Below are positions 1-25,879 of a DNA stretch of 64,000 nt, piece by piece; the stretch's first letter is position 1, and every line of letters starts with the position of its first letter. Origin of the DNA: Methanobrevibacter sp. (GTDB taxonomy: Archaea > Methanobacteriota > Methanobacteria > Methanobacteriales > Methanobacteriaceae); contig JAFZMD010000091.1 of assembly GCA_017553445.1 (NCBI GenBank), positions 12,164 to 76,163 on the forward strand, in the 5' to 3' direction. Under the pieces are notes generated by a model. It had not been told where the DNA came from. It saw nothing but the letters and a program-made list of their open reading frames with translations, and did no database searches. A program made the translations under genes and the position numbers.

Positions 1-3000
1 TTTGGAGACAATTTAGAATTTAAAGACCAGGACAAATCATCATTTTTGATCCACAACCCAGTATCATCATACCAACTTATGTATGTTAAGCCGCCATATT
101 GATATTCTTTAACTAAAACATTATTTAACTCTACTTTACCGGTATTTTTAACAGTTACTTCAAATACAACCTGATCTCCAACAGCAACAGTTTTATTAAT
201 GGAAATTTTATTCACTTCAAATTCAGGCACAACAACTTCAACGGTATCATTAGCCGTTTTATTGCTACTTTCATTAGAAGTTACAGTTACATAATTAGTA
301 AAGTTACCCTCCTTTGTGGTATTAAAGACTGCATAAAATCTTGAAAGTTCACCTACATACAATATATCGTTGAATGTGAAAGTTAAATCTCCATTGTCAA
401 TCCACAAACCTGAATGATCAATAATATGGTCAAATACTAAACCTTCATCAAATTTCTCATAAATAGTGACATTATGTAATCTTTTATCACCAGTATTTCT
501 AACAATGATTTCAAATATTGCCTGAGTTCCATTTAAGACCAGTTTTTCTTGCACATATTTTTCAACGTTTAAATTTGGATTAGTTGCATTTTTTTCCGGA
601 TCATAAGGAGGTTCATTCTCATAAACAAATGTAGAATTATTAGCCGTTTTATTTTCCACATTATTTGCACCGGCAGTTACTGTGTTAGTCCAATTACCAG
701 TTTGAGTTGCATTAAATATGACTATTAATGTAGCAACATCATTAGGTTTTAAAGATTGGACTAATTTAAATGTAGGATATTTATCTTCAAAGTTAGGATA
801 CCATTCTTCATTATCAACATAAGAATGATATGTTAGATTCTCATAATCTGTCTCTTCAATGAATACTCCCGTTAAAGTAGTCTGGCCGACATTTCTAACA
901 ATGATTTGGAAATAAGTCAAATTATTTTTATGGACAAGAGGAGTTAAAGTTACTTTTTCAACTGTGAATTTTGGTTCTACAACTTCAACAGTGTCATTTG
1001 CTGTTTTATTTGGAGTGTAATCTGCACCACCAACAACAACATTAGTAAAATTACCTGCTACAGTAGTATTGAAGACAACAAAGAAACCATGAGCCTCACC
1101 AACAGAAAGCACATTATTAAAAGTCCACTTATGCTTACCCCCAACAACAGACTCAGTCCAGTGACCTAAACCAAAAGCATGATCAAACACCAAACCATCA
1201 TATTCAAACTCCTCAACAAATACATTATTCAAATCAATGCCACCAGTATTAGTAACAACAATTTCAAATGTAACCTGCTCACCAACAACAACAGTAGGAT
1301 TCAAGCTAATCTTTTCAATCTCAAATTTAGGATCTACAACTTCAACAGTTTCATTATCTGTCTTATTTCCAGTTTCATTACTGCCTGCAGTTACTAAATT
1401 AGTCCAATTACCTGCTTTAGTAGTATTGAAGACAACAAAGAAACCATGAGCCTCACCAGGAGCAATTGTACCATTGTATTTCCAAAGGTATTTTCCTCCC
1501 TCATTATATTCAATCCAATTACCCAAACTATAAGAACTTATAAATTCTAATCCTTCACCATAATCTGTTTCTTCAATAAATACATCAGTTAAATCGATTA
1601 AACCGATATTTCTAACAAAAACTTCAAAGTCTACTAATTCACCAACAACGACTGTCTTATTTAAAGCAATTTTATCGACTTTAAAATCAGGCACTGTAAC
1701 AACAGTGTCATTTTTCGCTGTTTTATTTTCAGTTTCATTGCTACCCGCAACAACAACATTTGTAAATGTACCGACTTTAGTTGTATTAAAGACAACAGAT
1801 AATATTGTAACTTGATTAATACCTAATACATCATTTAAAGTCCATCTGTTTTTACCATTTACAACCGAATGAGTCCAATGAGTTTGATTTAAGCTATGGC
1901 TAAATATTAACCCATCATAACTTGATTCTTCAATAAACACTCCTGTTAAATCTGTTAATCCTGTGTTTCTTACTATAATTTGGAAAGTTGTTTGTTCACC
2001 AAGTGTAACAAGAGGTGTAATAGTAATTTTTTCCACATTGAAGTTAGAGTCTAGAACTTCAGTACTGTTTGATGCATTATTATTGTCCATATTTGAATCA
2101 GGAGTACTACTATTAACAAATACATTATTAACAATAGTAGTATTGTCTGTATTTACTCTTGTAGTAATCTTTAAGGTAGCTGTATCACCTTTAGCCAGGT
2201 TACCAATATTCCAACGACCCGTCTTTAAATTATATCTACCATTAGAATCATCTCTTAAATATGTAAGAGTTGAAGGAAGAATATCAATAGCATAAGAATC
2301 AACAGCAATATCAGGACCATTATTGGTAGCAACTATAGTCCAAACAATTTCATCACCAATAACGGAAGTCTCTTTTGAAACCAATTTTATAACACTTAAA
2401 TCAGCAAGTGAATTTGGAGTAGTTGTATTATCAGCTATGTTATTACTTTCATTTGGGTCATATGTACTACTATTCACATTAGCAATGTTTAAAATAGTAG
2501 TATTTGTAATATTTACAATAGTTCTAATAGTTAAAGTAACTACTTGGTTAACATTCAATGTTTTAATATTCCAAACTCCAGTACTTGGATTATAATCTCC
2601 ATCAGCACCATTAAATATTAATCCATCTGGAATTTGATCAATTACATAAGCATCGGATACATTATTAAATCCATAATTTGTAGCTACAATAGTCCAAGTA
2701 ATTTCATCTCCAAAATTAGGAGTCTTATTTGAAACATACTTTTCAACGGCCAAATCAGCAACAGGAAGGATTTCAAAGTAGGTCATGTTTGTAATATATT
2801 TATATAATCCATCTTCAAAGTGAGTTACATTTACTGAATAGTTTCCTGGAAGAAGACCTTTTTCAGATACACTAGTATTTCCTAAAATGCCCGTTTTGGA
2901 AGTAAAATTAATTAAAACTTTACCTGTTTCAAGATGAGTGAGAACTATAGTAATGTTTTGCAAATCTTCACGTGAATCCTGATATAAGATTGTACCATTT

Positions 3001-19750: not shown

Positions 19751-22564
19751 ATGGTGGTTAAAATTAAAAAGATTAGAAAATTAATGATATTATTATTCAT
19801 TATTATATTTTTTAATATATCCCATGTTTCTGCTGAAAATATAACCGATGTTAACAATATAGATTCAAATAATGTGAATATAGAAGCGCCTGATGTTACA
19901 ATGTATTATAAAGACGGTTCTAAACTTAATGTTGAACTGTCAGATAGTGATATGAATCCTATATATAATAATAATGTTACTATTAACATTAATGATGTTA
20001 ATTATACAAAAACAACAGATTTGGATGGAAAAACTTCTTTAAATTTAAATCTCAATCCGGGGAAGTATTTAGCTAATATTTATTTTTTAGGAAACGATGA
20101 ATACTTAAAAGGAAATACAAGTGCTAATGTAGAAGTTTTATCAACAATTGTTTCTAATGACTTAACAAAATATTATAAAAGTAATTCACAATTTGAAACT
20201 GAATTATTAGACAGCAAAGGTAATGCTTTAATTAACGAAACTGTTACATTTAACATTAACGGTATTTTTTATAATCGTTCAACGAATTCTAATGGTGTTG
20301 CAAAATTAAACATTAATTTGCCTTCCGGAAATTATACAATCATAGCATTTAATCCAAAAGATGGATTGCTTAAATCAAATAAAATAAAAGTTCTCTCATC
20401 AATAAATAGCTCTGATTTAAAAAAGATTTATAAAGATAGTAATCAATATTGGGCAACATTCAGATATGAAAACGGTGAAATTTTAAAAAATACCGACGTT
20501 AAATTTAATGTAAATGGTGTTTTATACACTCGTAAAACTGATGAAAATGGAAATGCCAAATTAAATATCAATTTACCCCCAGGTGAATATACAATAACCG
20601 CTTATAATCCAATAAATAATGAAAAGTGCTCAAATAAGATATATGTGTATGACTTTTCAAACACTACATTGGAAAGCGAAAATAAAGTATTTAAAGAAAA
20701 TGAGGAAGTATTGATTAAAGCTAATTTAACAAATATGTTAAATCAAGGCATGCAAAATGAAATTGTTACTTTAACCATTGAAAACAATACATACAATACT
20801 TTAACGGACGATAAGGGAGAAGCTAACTTTGATTTGAATTTACCTCAAGGAAATTATACATTAACCTTCAATTATGCTGGTGATGAAACTCACGGAGCTT
20901 CACTAACAAAAACTAGTCTGGAAGTGTATGATGGAATTATATCTAAAATAAGTGCAAATAATGTAACCATATTTGATGATGAATTATTTAATATTACTTT
21001 AACTGATAAGAATGGAAATCCATTAGCTAATAAAACTGTTTATTGTGAGTTTGACTCAGAAACATTATCTGCAAAAACTGACGAAAATGGAATTGCAGGT
21101 ATTGATTTTTCAATGTTTAGAGGTGAATATGACGTTAAATATTTCTTCAATGAAACTAATTATAAATATTCAAAAGGATTTGCGCATGTAACAGTAATAT
21201 CAATAAACAAAACCATAATTACACCATTGACATTTGATGTTCTAGAAGGTGAAAAAGAAAAATTATATATTCAATTAACATCTAAGCTTTTGCCGTTATC
21301 GAATAGAACTGTTTCAATAACGATTAATGGAAAAACATATCAAAAAATAACAAATGATGAAGGAATTGCAAACATTACCATCAATTTACCTGCTAACCAA
21401 TATAATATATCATATTTCTTTAAAGGAGATGACAAATTAAAAAATTGTACAAATTCTTCAATATTGAATGTTTGTAAGGATATTATACCTACTAAACTAA
21501 CTCCACTTACAATTGAGAATATTTATAAAAACACCAAAGTCTATTATAAAGTACTTTTATCCAGCGAAGGTGGCAAGCCAATTAATGCTAAAAAAATCAC
21601 ACTAACAATTGGTTCCAATCAATACACAAGTTTTACAAAAAATGATGGAATAGCTGAATTTAATATTATAAAAGATTTGGATATTGGAAATTACACTATT
21701 TCAACTGAATTTAGTGGAGATGAAAGATATACTGGATGTAAAGCTAAATCACAAGAAAAAATCAACTCTCCAATAGATTTAGGTTATGGATACTGGTTAA
21801 TGGGAGGTGATATGTACAACGTTAATTTATCCCAATTAGCATCATTAGGTACAAAAGATATATTAATCAATTATTATGTAATAACCCTTTTTGGAGAAAA
21901 AAACGTAAGTGAATGGGCTAAAAAAGCAATGGAATATGGTATAAGAGTACATATCTGGATGCAAATAGTTTATAAAGATGGAGAATGGCAAGCTCTTGAA
22001 TATAAAAATGGAACATTTAAATATGACTTAATAAATTCCAGAGTTGATGAGGCAAAATATTATGCAAATATTAGTGGTATTTCTGGCGTACACTTTGATT
22101 ACTTAAGATATGGTGGAACTGCATACAAATATCCTAGTGCTGCCGATTCAATAAATTATTTTGTGGAAAGAGCTGTATCAGAAATTAAAAAAGTTAATCC
22201 AAATTGTGTAGTTTCCGCTGCAGTAATGCCCGAACCTGATACTATGTTTTACTATGATGGTCAAGACATTCCAACATTAAGTAAATATTTAGATGTAGTT
22301 ATACCAATGATTTATAAAAGAAATTTCAATGAGGATAGTCCTTGGATAGGAGAAATGACACAAAAATTTAGCGAAATTTCTAATGGAGCTCAAATTTGGA
22401 CTGGTCTTCAAACATATAATTCAGATGATGATCCGACACCATTGAGTTATGATGAAGTCTTTAATGATGCACAACTTTCTTTTAATTCCAATGCAAATGG
22501 AGTTATTTTATTTAGAATTGGAGTTACAAAGTTATTGGACTTTAATAAATTAACAAATATATAA
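19751..22564 (+). CDS. Adhesin-like protein: signal peptide, 7 beta-sandwich repeat modules, C-terminal TIM-barrel glycoside-hydrolase-like domain
   Basis: 937 aa. Signal peptide LMILLFIIIFFNISHVSA. ~90-aa modules with KYYK...V.FNINGV.Y.R.TD.NG.AKLNINLP.G.Y. The C-terminal ~265 aa is paralogous to ORF 58770-59777 (GIRVHIWMQI, GVHFDYLRYGG, VIPMIYK). Confidence 0.8.
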   Translation: MVVKIKKIRKLMILLFIIIFFNISHVSAENITDVNNIDSNNVNIEAPDVTMYYKDGSKLNVELSDSDMNPIYNNNVTININDVNYTKTTDLDGKTSLNLNLNPGKYLANIYFLGNDEYLKGNTSANVEVLSTIVSNDLTKYYKSNSQFETELLDSKGNALINETVTFNINGIFYNRSTNSNGVAKLNINLPSGNYTIIAFNPKDGLLKSNKIKVLSSINSSDLKKIYKDSNQYWATFRYENGEILKNTDVKFNVNGVLYTRKTDENGNAKLNINLPPGEYTITAYNPINNEKCSNKIYVYDFSNTTLESENKVFKENEEVLIKANLTNMLNQGMQNEIVTLTIENNTYNTLTDDKGEANFDLNLPQGNYTLTFNYAGDETHGASLTKTSLEVYDGIISKISANNVTIFDDELFNITLTDKNGNPLANKTVYCEFDSETLSAKTDENGIAGIDFSMFRGEYDVKYFFNETNYKYSKGFAHVTVISINKTIITPLTFDVLEGEKEKLYIQLTSKLLPLSNRTVSITINGKTYQKITNDEGIANITINLPANQYNISYFFKGDDKLKNCTNSSILNVCKDIIPTKLTPLTIENIYKNTKVYYKVLLSSEGGKPINAKKITLTIGSNQYTSFTKNDGIAEFNIIKDLDIGNYTISTEFSGDERYTGCKAKSQEKINSPIDLGYGYWLMGGDMYNVNLSQLASLGTKDILINYYVITLFGEKNVSEWAKKAMEYGIRVHIWMQIVYKDGEWQALEYKNGTFKYDLINSRVDEAKYYANISGISGVHFDYLRYGGTAYKYPSAADSINYFVERAVSEIKKVNPNCVVSAAVMPEPDTMFYYDGQDIPTLSKYLDVVIPMIYKRNFNEDSPWIGEMTQKFSEISNGAQIWTGLQTYNSDDDPTPLSYDEVFNDAQLSFNSNANGVILFRIGVTKLLDFNKLTNI

Positions 22565-24177: not shown

Positions 24178-24603
24178 ATGGCTCTTAACTTAAGCCCGGA
24201 ACAGGGAGTTAAACTGACAAAAAAAGACAGATACCAGGTAGCAAGAAAAATTCGTCAAGGATGGAAAGCAAACTGTTTAATTCCGGATTATGTTTTTGAT
24301 GAAAACGGAGATATACAAATAGGTTCCCCCAACAATCGTCGTGTAGTCAAAAAGGTAAAAATACTGGATGATGGAATTCATTTTGAAAAAGCTCTCAAAA
24401 GTAAAACCCTTAGAATTCCATGGGATAAAATATCTCGAGTAGAACCAACAAAAGAAGTGCGTGACGGTTTAAAGATAGGAATGCATGATGGAAAATATGT
24501 TGTATTCAGTATTTACAATTCATATAAAATACAACAGATTACCCAATTCATAATTAACCATATTCAAAATAAAAGGATGGATAATACTAACATGTACAGT
24601 TAG
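24178..24603 (+). CDS. Hypothetical 141-aa protein, start abuts the upstream stop
   Basis: The ATG immediately follows the TAA of the amidotransferase gene. No motif recognised. Confidence 0.45.
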   Translation: MALNLSPEQGVKLTKKDRYQVARKIRQGWKANCLIPDYVFDENGDIQIGSPNNRRVVKKVKILDDGIHFEKALKSKTLRIPWDKISRVEPTKEVRDGLKIGMHDGKYVVFSIYNSYKIQQITQFIINHIQNKRMDNTNMYS

Positions 24604-25286
24604 TATTCTTCTAAATATTTATTTATGATGTCTTCGCCTCTAAGCAAGACTAATCCATTTTCTTCAGCATATTTACGTGCATCTGCAATAGAAGTAGCCT
24701 GTCCGGTTTCACCATCCATCATTTCACAAACCACACAAACTGGAGTAACACCTGCCATCTCACATAATGCAAGACCGATTTCAGTGTGTCCTCTTCTATT
24801 TTTCACGAGCCCGTCTGCTCCTCTTAAAAGACAGACATGACCAGGTGATCTGAATGTTGCACCAAATTCATCAAATCTTTCATCTTTCATCATTAAAGCC
24901 ATTTCACTAATTGTCATTGCTCTGTCATGGTCTGTAACGCCAGTGAAAGATTTTCTATGATTTGTCCATATGGAAAATGAAGATCTCTCATCATAGGGAA
25001 TATCTGTAGGTGCTAGTTTTGCTAATTCAGGGAATTTTTCTGTTGCCGCTTTCATAATGTCAACCATAAATGGCAAATGAATAGCTTCACAGAAATCTGC
25101 ATGTAAACAGTTACAGATTAAACCGCCGGCATCATTTCTCATAGTAGCAATTGATTTTGGGGTTACAAATTCGGAAGCGATAATCATATCAACTTCTCCT
25201 TCCCTATCATCATCGTCAAAAACTAGAACGAATTCACCATTTTTAATAGCTTCTAAAGCCTTATCTAAATTTGTTTCTTGATTCAT
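24600..25286 (-). CDS. ribB: 3,4-dihydroxy-2-butanone 4-phosphate synthase
   Basis: Start moved to ATG 25286 (MNQETNLDKALEAIKNG) with AAGGAGA about 7 nt upstream. Motifs DDDDREGEVDMI, DAGGLIC, FRSPGHV, RRGHTE. The track ORF extends to 25382, but that extension overlaps the riboswitch. Confidence 0.9.
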   Translation of the reverse strand: MNQETNLDKALEAIKNGEFVLVFDDDDREGEVDMIIASEFVTPKSIATMRNDAGGLICNCLHADFCEAIHLPFMVDIMKAATEKFPELAKLAPTDIPYDERSSFSIWTNHRKSFTGVTDHDRAMTISEMALMMKDERFDEFGATFRSPGHVCLLRGADGLVKNRRGHTEIGLALCEMAGVTPVCVVCEMMDGETGQATSIADARKYAEENGLVLLRGEDIINKYLEEY

Positions 25287-25333
25287 AGTAATGTCTCCTT
25301 GTGTACTAGAACCAGGGCTAAAAAATAATCTAC

Positions 25334-25462
25334 TTATTCTCTTCCATCCGGACTGTAACCGTCGGTTTTGGAATCTCACCAAATCAACACTTCATGTGCT
25401 CGTGGACTTATTTTATTAAAATCACCACCGGTAGGGAATTCCACCTCACCCTGAGAACGTAT
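25334..25462 (-). promoter_or_regulatory. FMN riboswitch (RFN element) aptamer in the ribB leader
   Basis: Minus strand reads GTTCTCAGGGTGAGGTGGAATTCCCTACCGGTGGT...AAGTCCACGAGC...TTGATTTGGTGAGATTCCAAAACCGACGGTTACAGTCCGGATGGAAGAGAAT. This matches the conserved FMN aptamer blocks (AGGGNGNGGTGNAATTCCC.ACCGGCGGT, AGCCCGCGAGC, GGTGNNATTCC..A.CCGACAGT, AGTCTGGATGGNAGA). Confidence 0.9.
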
Positions 25463-25477
25463 GAAAAAATATATCAA

Positions 25478-25492
25478 TTATTATATAAAATA
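25478..25492 (-). promoter_or_regulatory. Candidate TATA box for the riboswitch-ribB transcript
   Basis: Minus-strand TTTATATAA lies ~22-27 nt upstream of the first aptamer nucleotides, which fits archaeal TATA-to-start spacing. Confidence 0.4.
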
Positions 25493-25501
25493 CTTTTGAT
25501 T

Positions 25502-25879
25502 TCAAAATTCAATGCTGACAATATCGCCGTCTTTTAAATTAAGCTTATCCCTTAATTTGTCTTGAGCAATAAATTCCAAATAATTTTCTGTGTGTTCTGT
25601 TTTCGCCGGAAATACAATAGCTCCATCAACTTCATCATTTAAAATAGCCTTAATGTATTTTACCGCACCAAAACCCTCATCAGGTTTAATAATATTTTCA
25701 CAATTATCCTTAACTTCATTTATATGACTTAAATATTCATCAGGAACTATAACATTTAAAGTTCCGGGAAATGGCTTAAAGCCACAATTTTTAATAAAAT
25801 TATTTACATAAAAATCCTGTGAAAGAAAAAAAGCCGCCTTTCCTAAACCTGTTGTAACTTCACCATTAACTTTCATCAA
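25502..25879 (-). CDS. ribK: Archaeal CTP-dependent riboflavin kinase
   Basis: 125 aa. GEVTTGLGKAAFF and GFKPFPGTLNV blocks typical of the archaeal riboflavin kinase family. Confidence 0.85.
   Translation of the reverse strand: MMKVNGEVTTGLGKAAFFLSQDFYVNNFIKNCGFKPFPGTLNVIVPDEYLSHINEVKDNCENIIKPDEGFGAVKYIKAILNDEVDGAIVFPAKTEHTENYLEFIAQDKLRDKLNLKDGDIVSIEF

Follow-up and report, generated by a model that had tools for sequence, protein, structure and literature searches.

The DNA analysed here is a 64,000-nt stretch of a Methanobrevibacter contig (referred to as the window), in which the riboflavin synthesis gene ribB is preceded by a flavin mononucleotide (FMN) riboswitch aptamer. The element is probably a functional FMN-sensing OFF riboswitch with the architecture of the Escherichia coli ribB leader (sroG), wherein FMN would act by occluding the ribB start codon. 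This interpretation is carried by the identity of the aptamer, by three alternative helices and their conservation, and by homology to the E. coli leader.

A covariance-model scan of the whole window against Rfam yielded one match above its gathering score, the FMN aptamer (RF00050), at 25462..25332 on the minus strand. The match scores 109.5 bits against a gathering threshold of 66.2 bits (E = 1.4e-24) and spans model positions 1-138 of 138 without truncation. As is typical of the family, the aptamer is situated in the 5ˊ leader of a riboflavin synthesis gene; it lies between ribK and ribB, with ribB beginning 45 nt past the aptamer end. A first-pass annotation, made from the letters alone, had placed an FMN aptamer at 25334-25462 of the minus strand between these two genes, with a box about 25 nt upstream. 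The scan agrees with this placement, domain matches identify the flanking genes (PF01982 upstream, TIGR00506 and PF00926 downstream), and the box TTTATATA at 25489-25482 is located 20 nt before the model start and 24 nt before the first P1 base, G25458. The annotation had further pointed to a T6 run at 25320-25325, a CCCTG segment complementary to the CAGGG of the 5ˊ aptamer side, and an AAGGAGA Shine-Dalgarno (SD) sequence for ribB. All three can be read directly in the sequence, the first as the 3ˊ strand of the second alternative helix described below, the second as part of the anti-P1 stem, and the third at 25300-25294.

For comparative analysis, 80 Methanobrevibacter ribB loci were fetched from species-representative genomes, and 75 distinct leaders were aligned. 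The aptamer is found in 74 of the 80 loci and also in five further lineages that were reached via distant RibB homologs, down to 67% RibB identity. Across the 75 leaders the J1/2 GGG (G12-G14), ACCGG (A31-G35) and AGUCCGGAUG blocks are invariant, and the six-helix junction formed by P1-P6 is backed by compensatory substitutions. One pair in P2 is G:C in 48 sequences and A:U in the other 27, P4 includes a change from A:U to U:A, and P3, P5 and P6 are intact in every sequence. The occurrence at so many loci, together with the compensatory change in P2, argues that the aptamer is no chance match. The core is constant over leaders whose RibB proteins are 66-99% identical, while linkers and loops drift, a pattern that suggests purifying selection on the aptamer. 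FMN riboswitch variants with changed specificity carry A in place of binding-pocket G residues (PMC6298564). The pocket G residues are canonical here and not of this G-to-A type, as judged from the sequence blocks and not residue by residue on the structure 3F2Q. The aptamer is an ordinary family member that is readily found by the standard model.

One lineage, a rabbit-gut Methanobrevibacter with an archaeal-type ribB (L077), carries a decayed FMN aptamer at 2780-3000. Its leader retains the promoter-like box, fragments of P3 and P5, and the UAGUA...GGAGAUAUUACUAUGAAUC segment, and has lost P1, P2, P6, the U-tract and the GCCCUGG strand; it gives no RF00050 covariance-model match at E <= 0.01. 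This leader illustrates what decay without selection does to the element.

Downstream of the aptamer, the leader alignment exhibits a variable linker followed by the near-invariant series UUAUUUUU-AGCCCUGG-UUCUAGUA, then a variable loop that always holds GGAG, and finally the invariant UUACUAUGAAUC. We derived the helices of this region from minimum free energy (MFE) folding and from pair counts over the leader alignment, with pairing in slid registers as controls. The first-pass annotation had proposed folding the leader with and without an aptamer constraint, and this procedure recovered three alternative helices, which we name anti-P1, anti*-P1 and the sequestering stem (coordinates are given in the table below).

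Anti-P1 joins the end of P1 and J1/2 to the switching strand, with CCCUG at 25317-25313 complementary to CAGGG at 25453-25449. In the general form UCAGGGN : N'CCCUGG, 97.9% of cells in the alignment are paired, versus 18-57% in slid registers, and RNAalifold, when unguided, prefers this helix to P1. In two leaders (L087 and L076) the register has moved by one position (CUCAGG:CCUGGG) with the helix still intact. Anti*-P1 pairs the 3ˊ strand of P1 and the linker purines that follow it with a second segment that includes the T6 run at 25325-25320, and a 9-bp hairpin of this kind, containing the U-tract, is predicted for the ligand-free state of the leaders examined. This helix rests on complementarity and on sequence homology; its P1 strand is invariant, so covariation is not assessable. 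The segment UUAUUUUU is conserved although the linker before it varies. The sequestering stem comprises 10 bp plus a bulged U, and 98.4% of its cells are paired over the 75 leaders versus 20-56% in slid registers, its 5ˊ strand remaining invariant while the enclosed loop drifts.

Two further pairings were considered and rejected. A P1 mimic formed by the P1 3ˊ strand and the GUUCU of the platform would reach no more than 4-5 bp and could form only across anti-P1. A pseudoknot in which the U-tract serves as a degenerate anti-SD for the loop GGAG lacks comparative support, and the tract is missing in L076 and L081.

The three helices recur in E. coli. A blastn search of the leader against E. coli genomes matched 32 nt of the aptamer and nothing of the platform; the homology of the platform was seen on direct reading of the E. 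coli leader. The two leaders share the strand GCCCUG(A/G)UUCU(G/A)GUA and the start region UAC(C/U)AUGAAUCA. The E. coli leader reads GCCCTGATTCTGGTAAC...ACCATGAATCAG with the start side TTTACCATGAATCAG, an archaeal leader from a second lineage (L128) reads GCCCTGATTCTAGTAAC...ACTATGAATCAT with the start side TTTACTATGAATCAT, and the window leader reads GCCCTGGTTCTAGTAC...ACTATGAATCAA with the start side ATTACTATGAATCAA. A multiple alignment sets the platform strands of all three in register. In total, a switching strand of 16-17 nt, the start region and the first three codons agree with E. coli in both sequence and order.

The structural states of the E. coli ribB riboswitch have been probed co-transcriptionally (PMC11571811). 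Protection by FMN in the OFF state extends to P1 and to a sequestering stem that covers SD and AUG, whereas the FMN-free ON state contains anti-P1 and a newly proposed anti*-P1 formed by nt 141-149 with nt 175-183; nt 175 and 181 are pause sites (PMC11571811). This riboswitch also acts through Rho, by factor-dependent termination (PMC5499598). The published numbering was transferred to our E. coli locus by setting nt 1 at L150:386, such that nt 175-183 correspond to L150 560-568 and read CGUUAUUUU. With this setting C175, G176 and U181 fall on the right bases and probe 218 falls on GAUUCUGGUA, and the mapping of the PMC11571811 numbering is therefore secure.

On this basis each archaeal helix can be placed beside its counterpart. 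Anti-P1 is UCAGGGC:GCCCUGA in E. coli, with GCCCUGA at leader nt 210-216, and a stem of the form UCAGGGN:N'CCCUGR is shared by E. coli and every archaeal lineage examined, with 94.6-97.9% of cells paired. For anti*-P1, AGAAUAACG at nt 141-149 pairs with CGUUAUUUU at nt 175-183 in E. coli, and AGAGAAUAA pairs with UUAUUUUUU in the window. The sequestering stem is GAUUCUGGUA:UACCAUGAAUC in E. coli and GGUUCUAGUA:UACUAUGAAUC in the window, with a bulged U in both and with one compensatory pair (A:U in the window, G:C in E. coli). The three helices, although derived independently for the archaeal leader, are the anti-P1, anti*-P1 and sequestering stem of E. coli, and the archaeal U-tract, (A)GUUAUUUUU, is the homolog of the E. 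coli anti*-P1/pause strand and no archaeal invention. Of the features that characterize the sroG platform, the window holds the anti-P1 stem, the anti*-P1 stem and the AUG-containing sequestering stem, while Rho-dependent termination via a Rho utilization (rut) region has no counterpart there.

A mechanism can be proposed from these correspondences. Transcription would start at an archaeal promoter, composed of a transcription factor B recognition element (BRE) and a TATA box, a few nt before P1. Without FMN, the aptamer would be held open by anti-P1, in which UCAGGGU (25454-25448) pairs with GCCCUGG (25318-25312), and by anti*-P1, in which AGAGAAUAA (25342-25334) pairs with the U-tract (25328-25320), and ribB would be translated. 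When FMN is bound, P1 would close through pairing of 25458-25453 with 25341-25336, and both alternative strands, the U-tract and GCCCUGG, would be freed. The liberated GGUUCUAGUA (25313-25304) would then complete the stem with UACUAUGAAUC (25290-25280), burying the AUG at 25286 and presumably reducing initiation of ribB translation. FMN-dependent occlusion of the start codon is favoured here from homology to the E. coli platform, and the E. coli experiments likewise suggest which way the switch works and that it acts on translation. The free energy of the free ensemble minus that of the P1-forced ensemble is -3.2 +/- 1.7 kcal/mol over 80 leaders; in other words, the P1-penalised ensemble is the more stable one. 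A bias of this size could be overturned by ligand binding, consistent with a poised two-state switch. To our knowledge, Archaea have no Rho, and the Rho-dependent arm of the E. coli mechanism therefore cannot operate in this leader.

Several observations weigh against this mechanism. The GGAG of the SD sits unpaired in the 13-nt loop of the sequestering stem, unlike in E. coli; in the window its unpaired probability is 0.8-0.9 in both states, so the SD itself is not paired in the OFF state. Equilibrium secondary-structure (2D) modelling puts the start-codon stem in both states, and the difference between the bound and free states in the cost of opening the ribosome binding site (RBS) is only +0.4 kcal/mol in the window, averaging +1.3 +/- 1.5 kcal/mol over 80 leaders with a positive value in 64. 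Applied to the validated E. coli leader, the RBS calculation likewise retains the stem with and without ligand, and the difference is +3.5 kcal/mol. Because the validated leader behaves alike, we count the equilibrium RBS test as insensitive for a design that operates co-transcriptionally and not as contradictory, and its values are therefore used as evidence neither way. The platform strands show little variation, which leaves few double-sided changes in their helices, too few to reach significance against shuffle controls; the folding significance of the whole leader is an uninformative z = -0.31. FMN binding, the transcription start site and regulation at the archaeal leader are all inferred.

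Some lineages also re-pair the switching strand differently. In the smithii clade it pairs with codons 6-10. A local hairpin is formed from the 5ˊ strand of the sequestering stem in L081 (2465-2485, GUUCUAU-UAA-AUAGAAC) and in L128 (3350-3330 on the minus strand, AUUCUAG-UAA-CUAGAAU), and these hairpins would be expected to compete with pairing to the start codon. In a Methanosphaera leader (L152, 2440-2500), a U8 run (GCCCUGUUUUUUUUGAAUA) instead of GUUCUAGUA follows GCCCUG, and the platform has diverged there.

The first-pass annotation had left open whether the platform works by oligo-T termination or by sequestration of the SD. Homology largely answers this in favour of sequestration, with the amendment that the stem covers the start codon while the window SD remains unpaired in the loop. 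The output is not a bacterial-type hairpin terminator, and a terminator scan found no bacterial-type intrinsic terminator on the minus strand between 25332 and 25286. The most serious competing explanation is nevertheless a form of premature transcription termination. In this scheme, which we regard as rather unlikely, the main output is termination at the U-tract (25328-25320). The anti*-P1 hairpin would conceal this tract as long as FMN is absent, and FMN-stabilised P1 would expose it to oligo-U termination or to the cleavage and termination factor aCPSF1/FttA, which would stand in for the Rho arm of E. coli. It is known that aCPSF1 recognises U-tracts. Among 11 leaders with a correctly mapped register, the unpaired probability of the U-tract goes from 0.02-0.2 in the free state to 0.15-0.84 when P1 is forced, with a clear rise in nine. 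In the window, T-runs of at least 6 are about 12 times as frequent within 60 nt past a stop codon as in coding sense strands (8.5 vs 0.72 per kb), where they are under-represented compared with A-runs. The T5-T9 tract therefore resembles terminators of the host genome. It has also lengthened to U5-U9 (U4 in E. coli), polymerase pauses in the corresponding region of E. coli (PMC11571811), and E. coli ribB does use factor-dependent termination (PMC5499598).

The geometry of the leader argues otherwise. The 3ˊ strand of anti-P1 is downstream of the tract and cannot prevent intrinsic termination there, and FMN makes no difference to the nascent RNA of a polymerase that stands on the tract, apart from the stability of P1. 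Nor can P1 serve as a terminator stem before the U-run, a candidate that was rejected given that the distance from P1 to the tract ranges from ~9 to ~30 nt among close relatives. Two leaders, L076 (UUAUUGU) and L081 (UUUUGUU), retain the switch without a clean tract, and an inherited anti*-P1 strand is sufficient to explain why the tract is present. A related and doubtful proposal is that the platform was re-tooled after transfer, such that the pause/anti*-P1 strand became a U5-U9 tract beside anti-P1 whose exposure by FMN recruits aCPSF1/FttA or causes oligo-U termination. If true, this would be the first demonstration in Archaea of a riboswitch that governs factor-dependent transcription termination, and a natural swap of one termination factor for another under the same RNA switch.

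It is very unlikely that the element is a non-functional relic of horizontal transfer that leaves ribB unregulated. The decayed aptamer of L077 demonstrates that one lineage has let the element go, and the equilibrium effect on the RBS is small. Against this stand the invariance of the aptamer core over 75 leaders whose RibB identity extends from 66 to 99% amid drifting linkers and loops, the compensatory changes in P2 and P4, and the conservation of the platform strands across domains. Moreover, the unselected copy in L077 has lost P1, P2, P6, GCCCUGG and its detectability by the covariance model.

The origin of the leader can be addressed through the proteins it precedes. In comparisons with solved structures, the window RibB scores 295 bits with that of M. 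jannaschii (1PVW) and at most 105 bits with bacterial or fungal structures, which agrees with the ~228-aa archaeal-type protein named in the first-pass annotation. The body of this RibB is archaeal and vertically inherited. In a RibB tree, all lineages with the riboswitch group in a single clade, within which the decayed L077 is nested, and all riboswitch-less lineages (M. cuticularis, M. curvatus, Methanobinarius, DSM 116169 and others) are placed in the sister group. In two riboswitch-less lineages (L078 and L079, 2960-3000), ribK and ribB abut or overlap with no intergenic space. Because these relatives have a tight ribK-ribB operon, the ~215-nt module of promoter, aptamer and platform looks like an insertion. 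Riboswitch-bearing archaeal-type RibBs have an N-terminal extension of 3-5 residues, mostly MNQ or MNH, that riboswitch-less ones lack; the MNQET extension of the window RibB is common to the riboswitch cassette, and the corresponding starts are MNHEE in bacterial-type RibBs and MNQT in E. coli.

A metagenome scan with the low-GC P3-P5 sequence of the aptamer mostly retrieved the same Methanobrevibacter leader. It also returned bacterial leaders with hairpin-plus-U terminators (L100 and L139) as well as archaeal contigs in which the aptamer precedes a gene whose product is only ~30% identical to the window RibB. The RibBs on three such archaeal contigs (L112, L128 and L152) are of the E. coli/Salmonella type and 212-213 aa in length, score ~300 bits with the structures 3LQU and 1G57, and align with E. 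coli RibB over 201 residues without a gap, at 65-72% identity. Their identity to archaeal RibB is ~33%, and they score 92 bits with M. jannaschii RibB. The neighbours on these contigs are TfrA, the archaeal CTP-dependent RibK, CbiA and GatA, and archaeal-type and bacterial-type ribB genes share one gene neighbourhood, cbiA-ribK-tfrA. The bacterial type is common and diverse in Methanosphaera and in many metagenome-assembled genomes (MAGs) of Methanobrevibacter and other Methanobacteriaceae, and on a contig whose RibB is named by NCBI as Methanosphaera stadtmanae, the aptamer (110.9 bits) precedes this gene. The 120 best homologs of the bacterial-type protein come without exception from archaea, at 75-100% identity, and the closest 50% cluster representative is from Alistipes putredinis, at 63% identity. 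No FMN riboswitch was found upstream of the Alistipes putredinis ribB (L151). That RibB (L151, 1201-2058) is annotated as 285 aa with RibB homology from about residue 75, and its long N-terminus is probably a mis-called start site.

The simplest reading of these data is that a bacterial riboswitch-ribB unit entered gut Methanobacteriaceae, and that its leader and first codons (MNQ) became joined to the native ribB. The putative donor can be described as an E. coli-like ribB unit. The first-pass annotation had described ribB as not obviously a bacterial import and had proposed a ribB phylogeny. Its description holds for the body of the protein and fails for the leader and the first three or four codons, which are of bacterial type, and E. 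coli-type RibB stands behind the same leader in other Methanobacteriaceae.

An origin without import from another domain, whereby the riboswitch is ancestral in Methanobacteriaceae or its E. coli-like platform arose by convergence, seems highly improbable. The bacterial-type RibB clade in archaea is already diverse (75-100% identity), so any transfer must be old, and the donor search led to Alistipes, the closest 50% cluster representative, which has no riboswitch. Against it stands the match to E. coli, in sequence and order, from the switching strand (16-17 nt) through the start region into the first three codons, together with sister-lineage RibBs that resemble E. coli RibB (65-72%) far more than archaeal RibB (~33%). 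In addition, riboswitch-less relatives have an uninterrupted ribK-ribB operon, and surveys place FMN riboswitches almost exclusively in Bacteria (PMC5397151, PMC5473149).

The features of the window leader and of the related archaeal contigs are collected below.

Table 1. Positions of the aptamer, the alternative helices and neighbouring features. Coordinates refer to the window unless a contig is named.
Feature	Position	Strand	Support
FMN aptamer, helices P1-P6	25332..25462	-	RF00050, 109.5 bits, full length
P1, 5ˊ strand GUUCUC	25453..25458	-	covariance-model alignment, pair list
P1, 3ˊ strand GAGAAU	25336..25341	-	covariance-model alignment, pair list
Anti-P1, 5ˊ strand UCAGGGU (end of P1 and J1/2)	25448..25454	-	MFE folds, pair counts
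Anti-P1, 3ˊ strand GCCCUGG (switching strand)	25312..25318	-	MFE folds, pair counts, E. coli homology
Anti*-P1, 5ˊ strand AGAGAAUAA (P1 3ˊ strand and linker purines)	25334..25342	-	MFE folds
Anti*-P1, 3ˊ strand UUAUUUUUU (T-run)	25320..25328	-	MFE folds, E. coli homology
Sequestering stem, 5ˊ strand GGUUCUAGUA	25304..25313	-	pair counts, E. coli homology
Sequestering stem, 3ˊ strand UACUAUGAAUC (holds start codon, U of AUG bulged)	25280..25290	-	folds, pair counts
Shine-Dalgarno AAGGAGA	25294..25300	-	GGAG conserved in otherwise variable loop
BRE/TATA-like promoter CAAAAGTA + TTTTATATAA	25481..25498	-	conserved box in leader alignment
ribK, CTP-dependent riboflavin kinase, 125 aa, kinase domain only	25502..25879	-	PF01982, 118 bits; NF040694, 101.8 bits
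ribB, 228 aa, archaeal-type body, N-terminal MNQET extension	24600..25286	-	TIGR00506, 256 bits; PF00926
FMN aptamer + E. coli-type RibB, archaeal contig L112	6280-7155		
FMN aptamer + E. coli-type RibB, archaeal contig L128	3608-2654	-	
FMN aptamer + E. coli-type RibB, archaeal contig L152	2318-3139		

The promoter-like element AAAGTATTTTATA(C/T)AT is found at a constant distance from P1 in nearly all 75 leaders, irrespective of the sequence further upstream. By the usual spacing between an archaeal TATA box and the start, transcription probably begins within a few nt of P1 (25462-25457). A second T6 run is present at 25465-25470 on the minus strand, between the TATA box and the likely start and 32 nt past the ribK stop codon. 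This run could be the ribK terminator, and it is conserved in many leaders although not in all (ATATATTTTTTA vs ATATATTTGATA).

The ATG of ribB is at 25286-25284, and this true start is supported by homologous N-termini and by SD spacing. A mechanical 260-aa ORF (open reading frame) from TTG 25382 crosses the 3ˊ half of the aptamer (MVRFQNRRLQSGWKR...); the first-pass annotation had dismissed it as an artefact, and homologs and M. jannaschii RibB indeed align from ATG 25286. That this longer frame, which exists mechanically, is the real RibB can be set aside, given that its extension overlaps a 109-bit structured RNA, M. jannaschii RibB aligns from residue 5 of the 228-aa form, all homologs begin at the conserved ATG 7-8 nt past GGAG, and linker indels leave the upstream frame unconserved.

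The window RibB is 98-99% identical to the RibB of several MAGs, and the host is a rumen Methanobrevibacter of the thaueri/millerae group. The methanogen marker TfrA is encoded next to the ribK-ribB locus, and no second ribB gene was found within the window. On the opposite strand, a 141-aa ORF at 24178-24603 is convergent with ribB and overlaps its stop by 4 nt; it gives no Pfam or NCBIfam match. A comparable ORF of 141-145 aa without a recorded Pfam match is located between cbiA and ribB in L085, L087, L091 and L093. In L083 and L084 (3280-4275), a gene for an FMN oxidoreductase of the Old Yellow Enzyme family (PF00724) lies 78 nt downstream of ribB on the same strand, and this flavoprotein may be co-regulated by the FMN switch. 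Further away in the window, at 19751-22564 on the plus strand, is a gene for a 937-aa protein with a signal-like N-terminus and many tandem repeats of ~80 residues, which looks like the adhesin-like proteins typical of gut methanogens.

Published accounts of FMN riboswitches in Archaea are brief. One survey states in a single sentence that examples occur occasionally in Archaea (McCown et al. 2017, PMC5473149), and another describes the class as restricted to Bacteria (Rodionova et al. 2017, PMC5397151). Our full-text literature search turned up no description of the platform or of its being homologous to that of E. coli ribB, nothing on there being two types of ribB, and no experimental study of an archaeal FMN riboswitch. 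The genome of M. ruminantium that is used in the Infernal/Rfam tutorial reportedly lists an FMN match. The present leader corrects the published view that FMN riboswitches never control rib genes in Archaea.

Riboswitches are rare in Archaea, and their coupling to archaeal transcription and translation is essentially unexplored ground. The interest of the leader rests on the cross-domain transfer of a whole switch, on the way it was re-wired to a native gene, and on its separation from Rho. Sensor and output device of a bacterial switch are both present, helix for helix like those of the best-probed FMN translational switch, and the mechanism is consequently predictable and directly testable through the three helices. 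The leader also provides a natural experiment on a dual Rho-and-translation riboswitch that has been deprived of Rho, and an example of a regulatory RNA that passed between domains and was then attached to a host gene, in a lineage that has reportedly lost the protein regulator RbkR. In practical terms, the methanogens that dominate gut and rumen are Methanobrevibacter and Methanosphaera, and in bacteria the FMN riboswitch is a validated drug target.

Among known systems, the E. coli ribB (sroG) riboswitch is the closest. Both aptamers belong to one family (122.7 bits for E. coli, 109.5 bits for the window), and the elements follow one order, with P1 followed by anti*-P1 (CGUUAUUUU vs (A)GUUAUUUUU), anti-P1 (GCCCUGA vs GCCCUGG) and the sequestering stem. 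The first codons, AUGAAUCA, encode MNQ in both, and the regulated function is in each case 3,4-dihydroxy-2-butanone 4-phosphate (DHBP) synthase encoded as a single gene. The differences are that E. coli uses a sigma-70 promoter and the window an archaeal BRE/TATA promoter, that the U4 run of E. coli is U5-U9 in archaeal leaders, and that the segment between the two alternative strands is deleted in the archaeal leader. Moreover, in E. coli pairing is possible between GG in GAGG and CC in GGUAACC, whereas the window GGAG is unpaired in its loop, the archaeal host is without Rho, and the body of the window RibB is archaeal-type, with ~34% identity to the bacterial type.

The B. subtilis ribD type of FMN riboswitch shares the aptamer class and the OFF logic. 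Its GC-rich hairpin and U-run are absent from the window leader, whereas bacterial leaders with the same aptamer pattern (L100/L147 and L139/L145) do have terminators. The fluoride riboswitch of Thermococcus kodakarensis, described as the only experimentally validated natural archaeal riboswitch, is likewise a natural member of a mainly bacterial class in an archaeal 5ˊ leader (PMC8241225, PMC11549558). It differs in its ligand class, in being an ON switch for an exporter, and in that these papers report no homology to a characterised bacterial platform (PMC8241225, PMC11549558).

Finally, RbkR is a protein that controls archaeal riboflavin genes and is a paralogous form of the adjacent ribK (PMC5397151). 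RbkR binds DNA through a winged helix-turn-helix domain (wHTH) at its N-terminus. The window RibK lacks this domain, its match to NF010762 spanning profile positions 91-216 only, which is the kinase part, and the ribK product is therefore not RbkR. The Methanobacteriales are reported to have lost the DNA-binding domain of RbkR (PMC5397151), and the riboswitch may fill the regulatory gap left by this loss.

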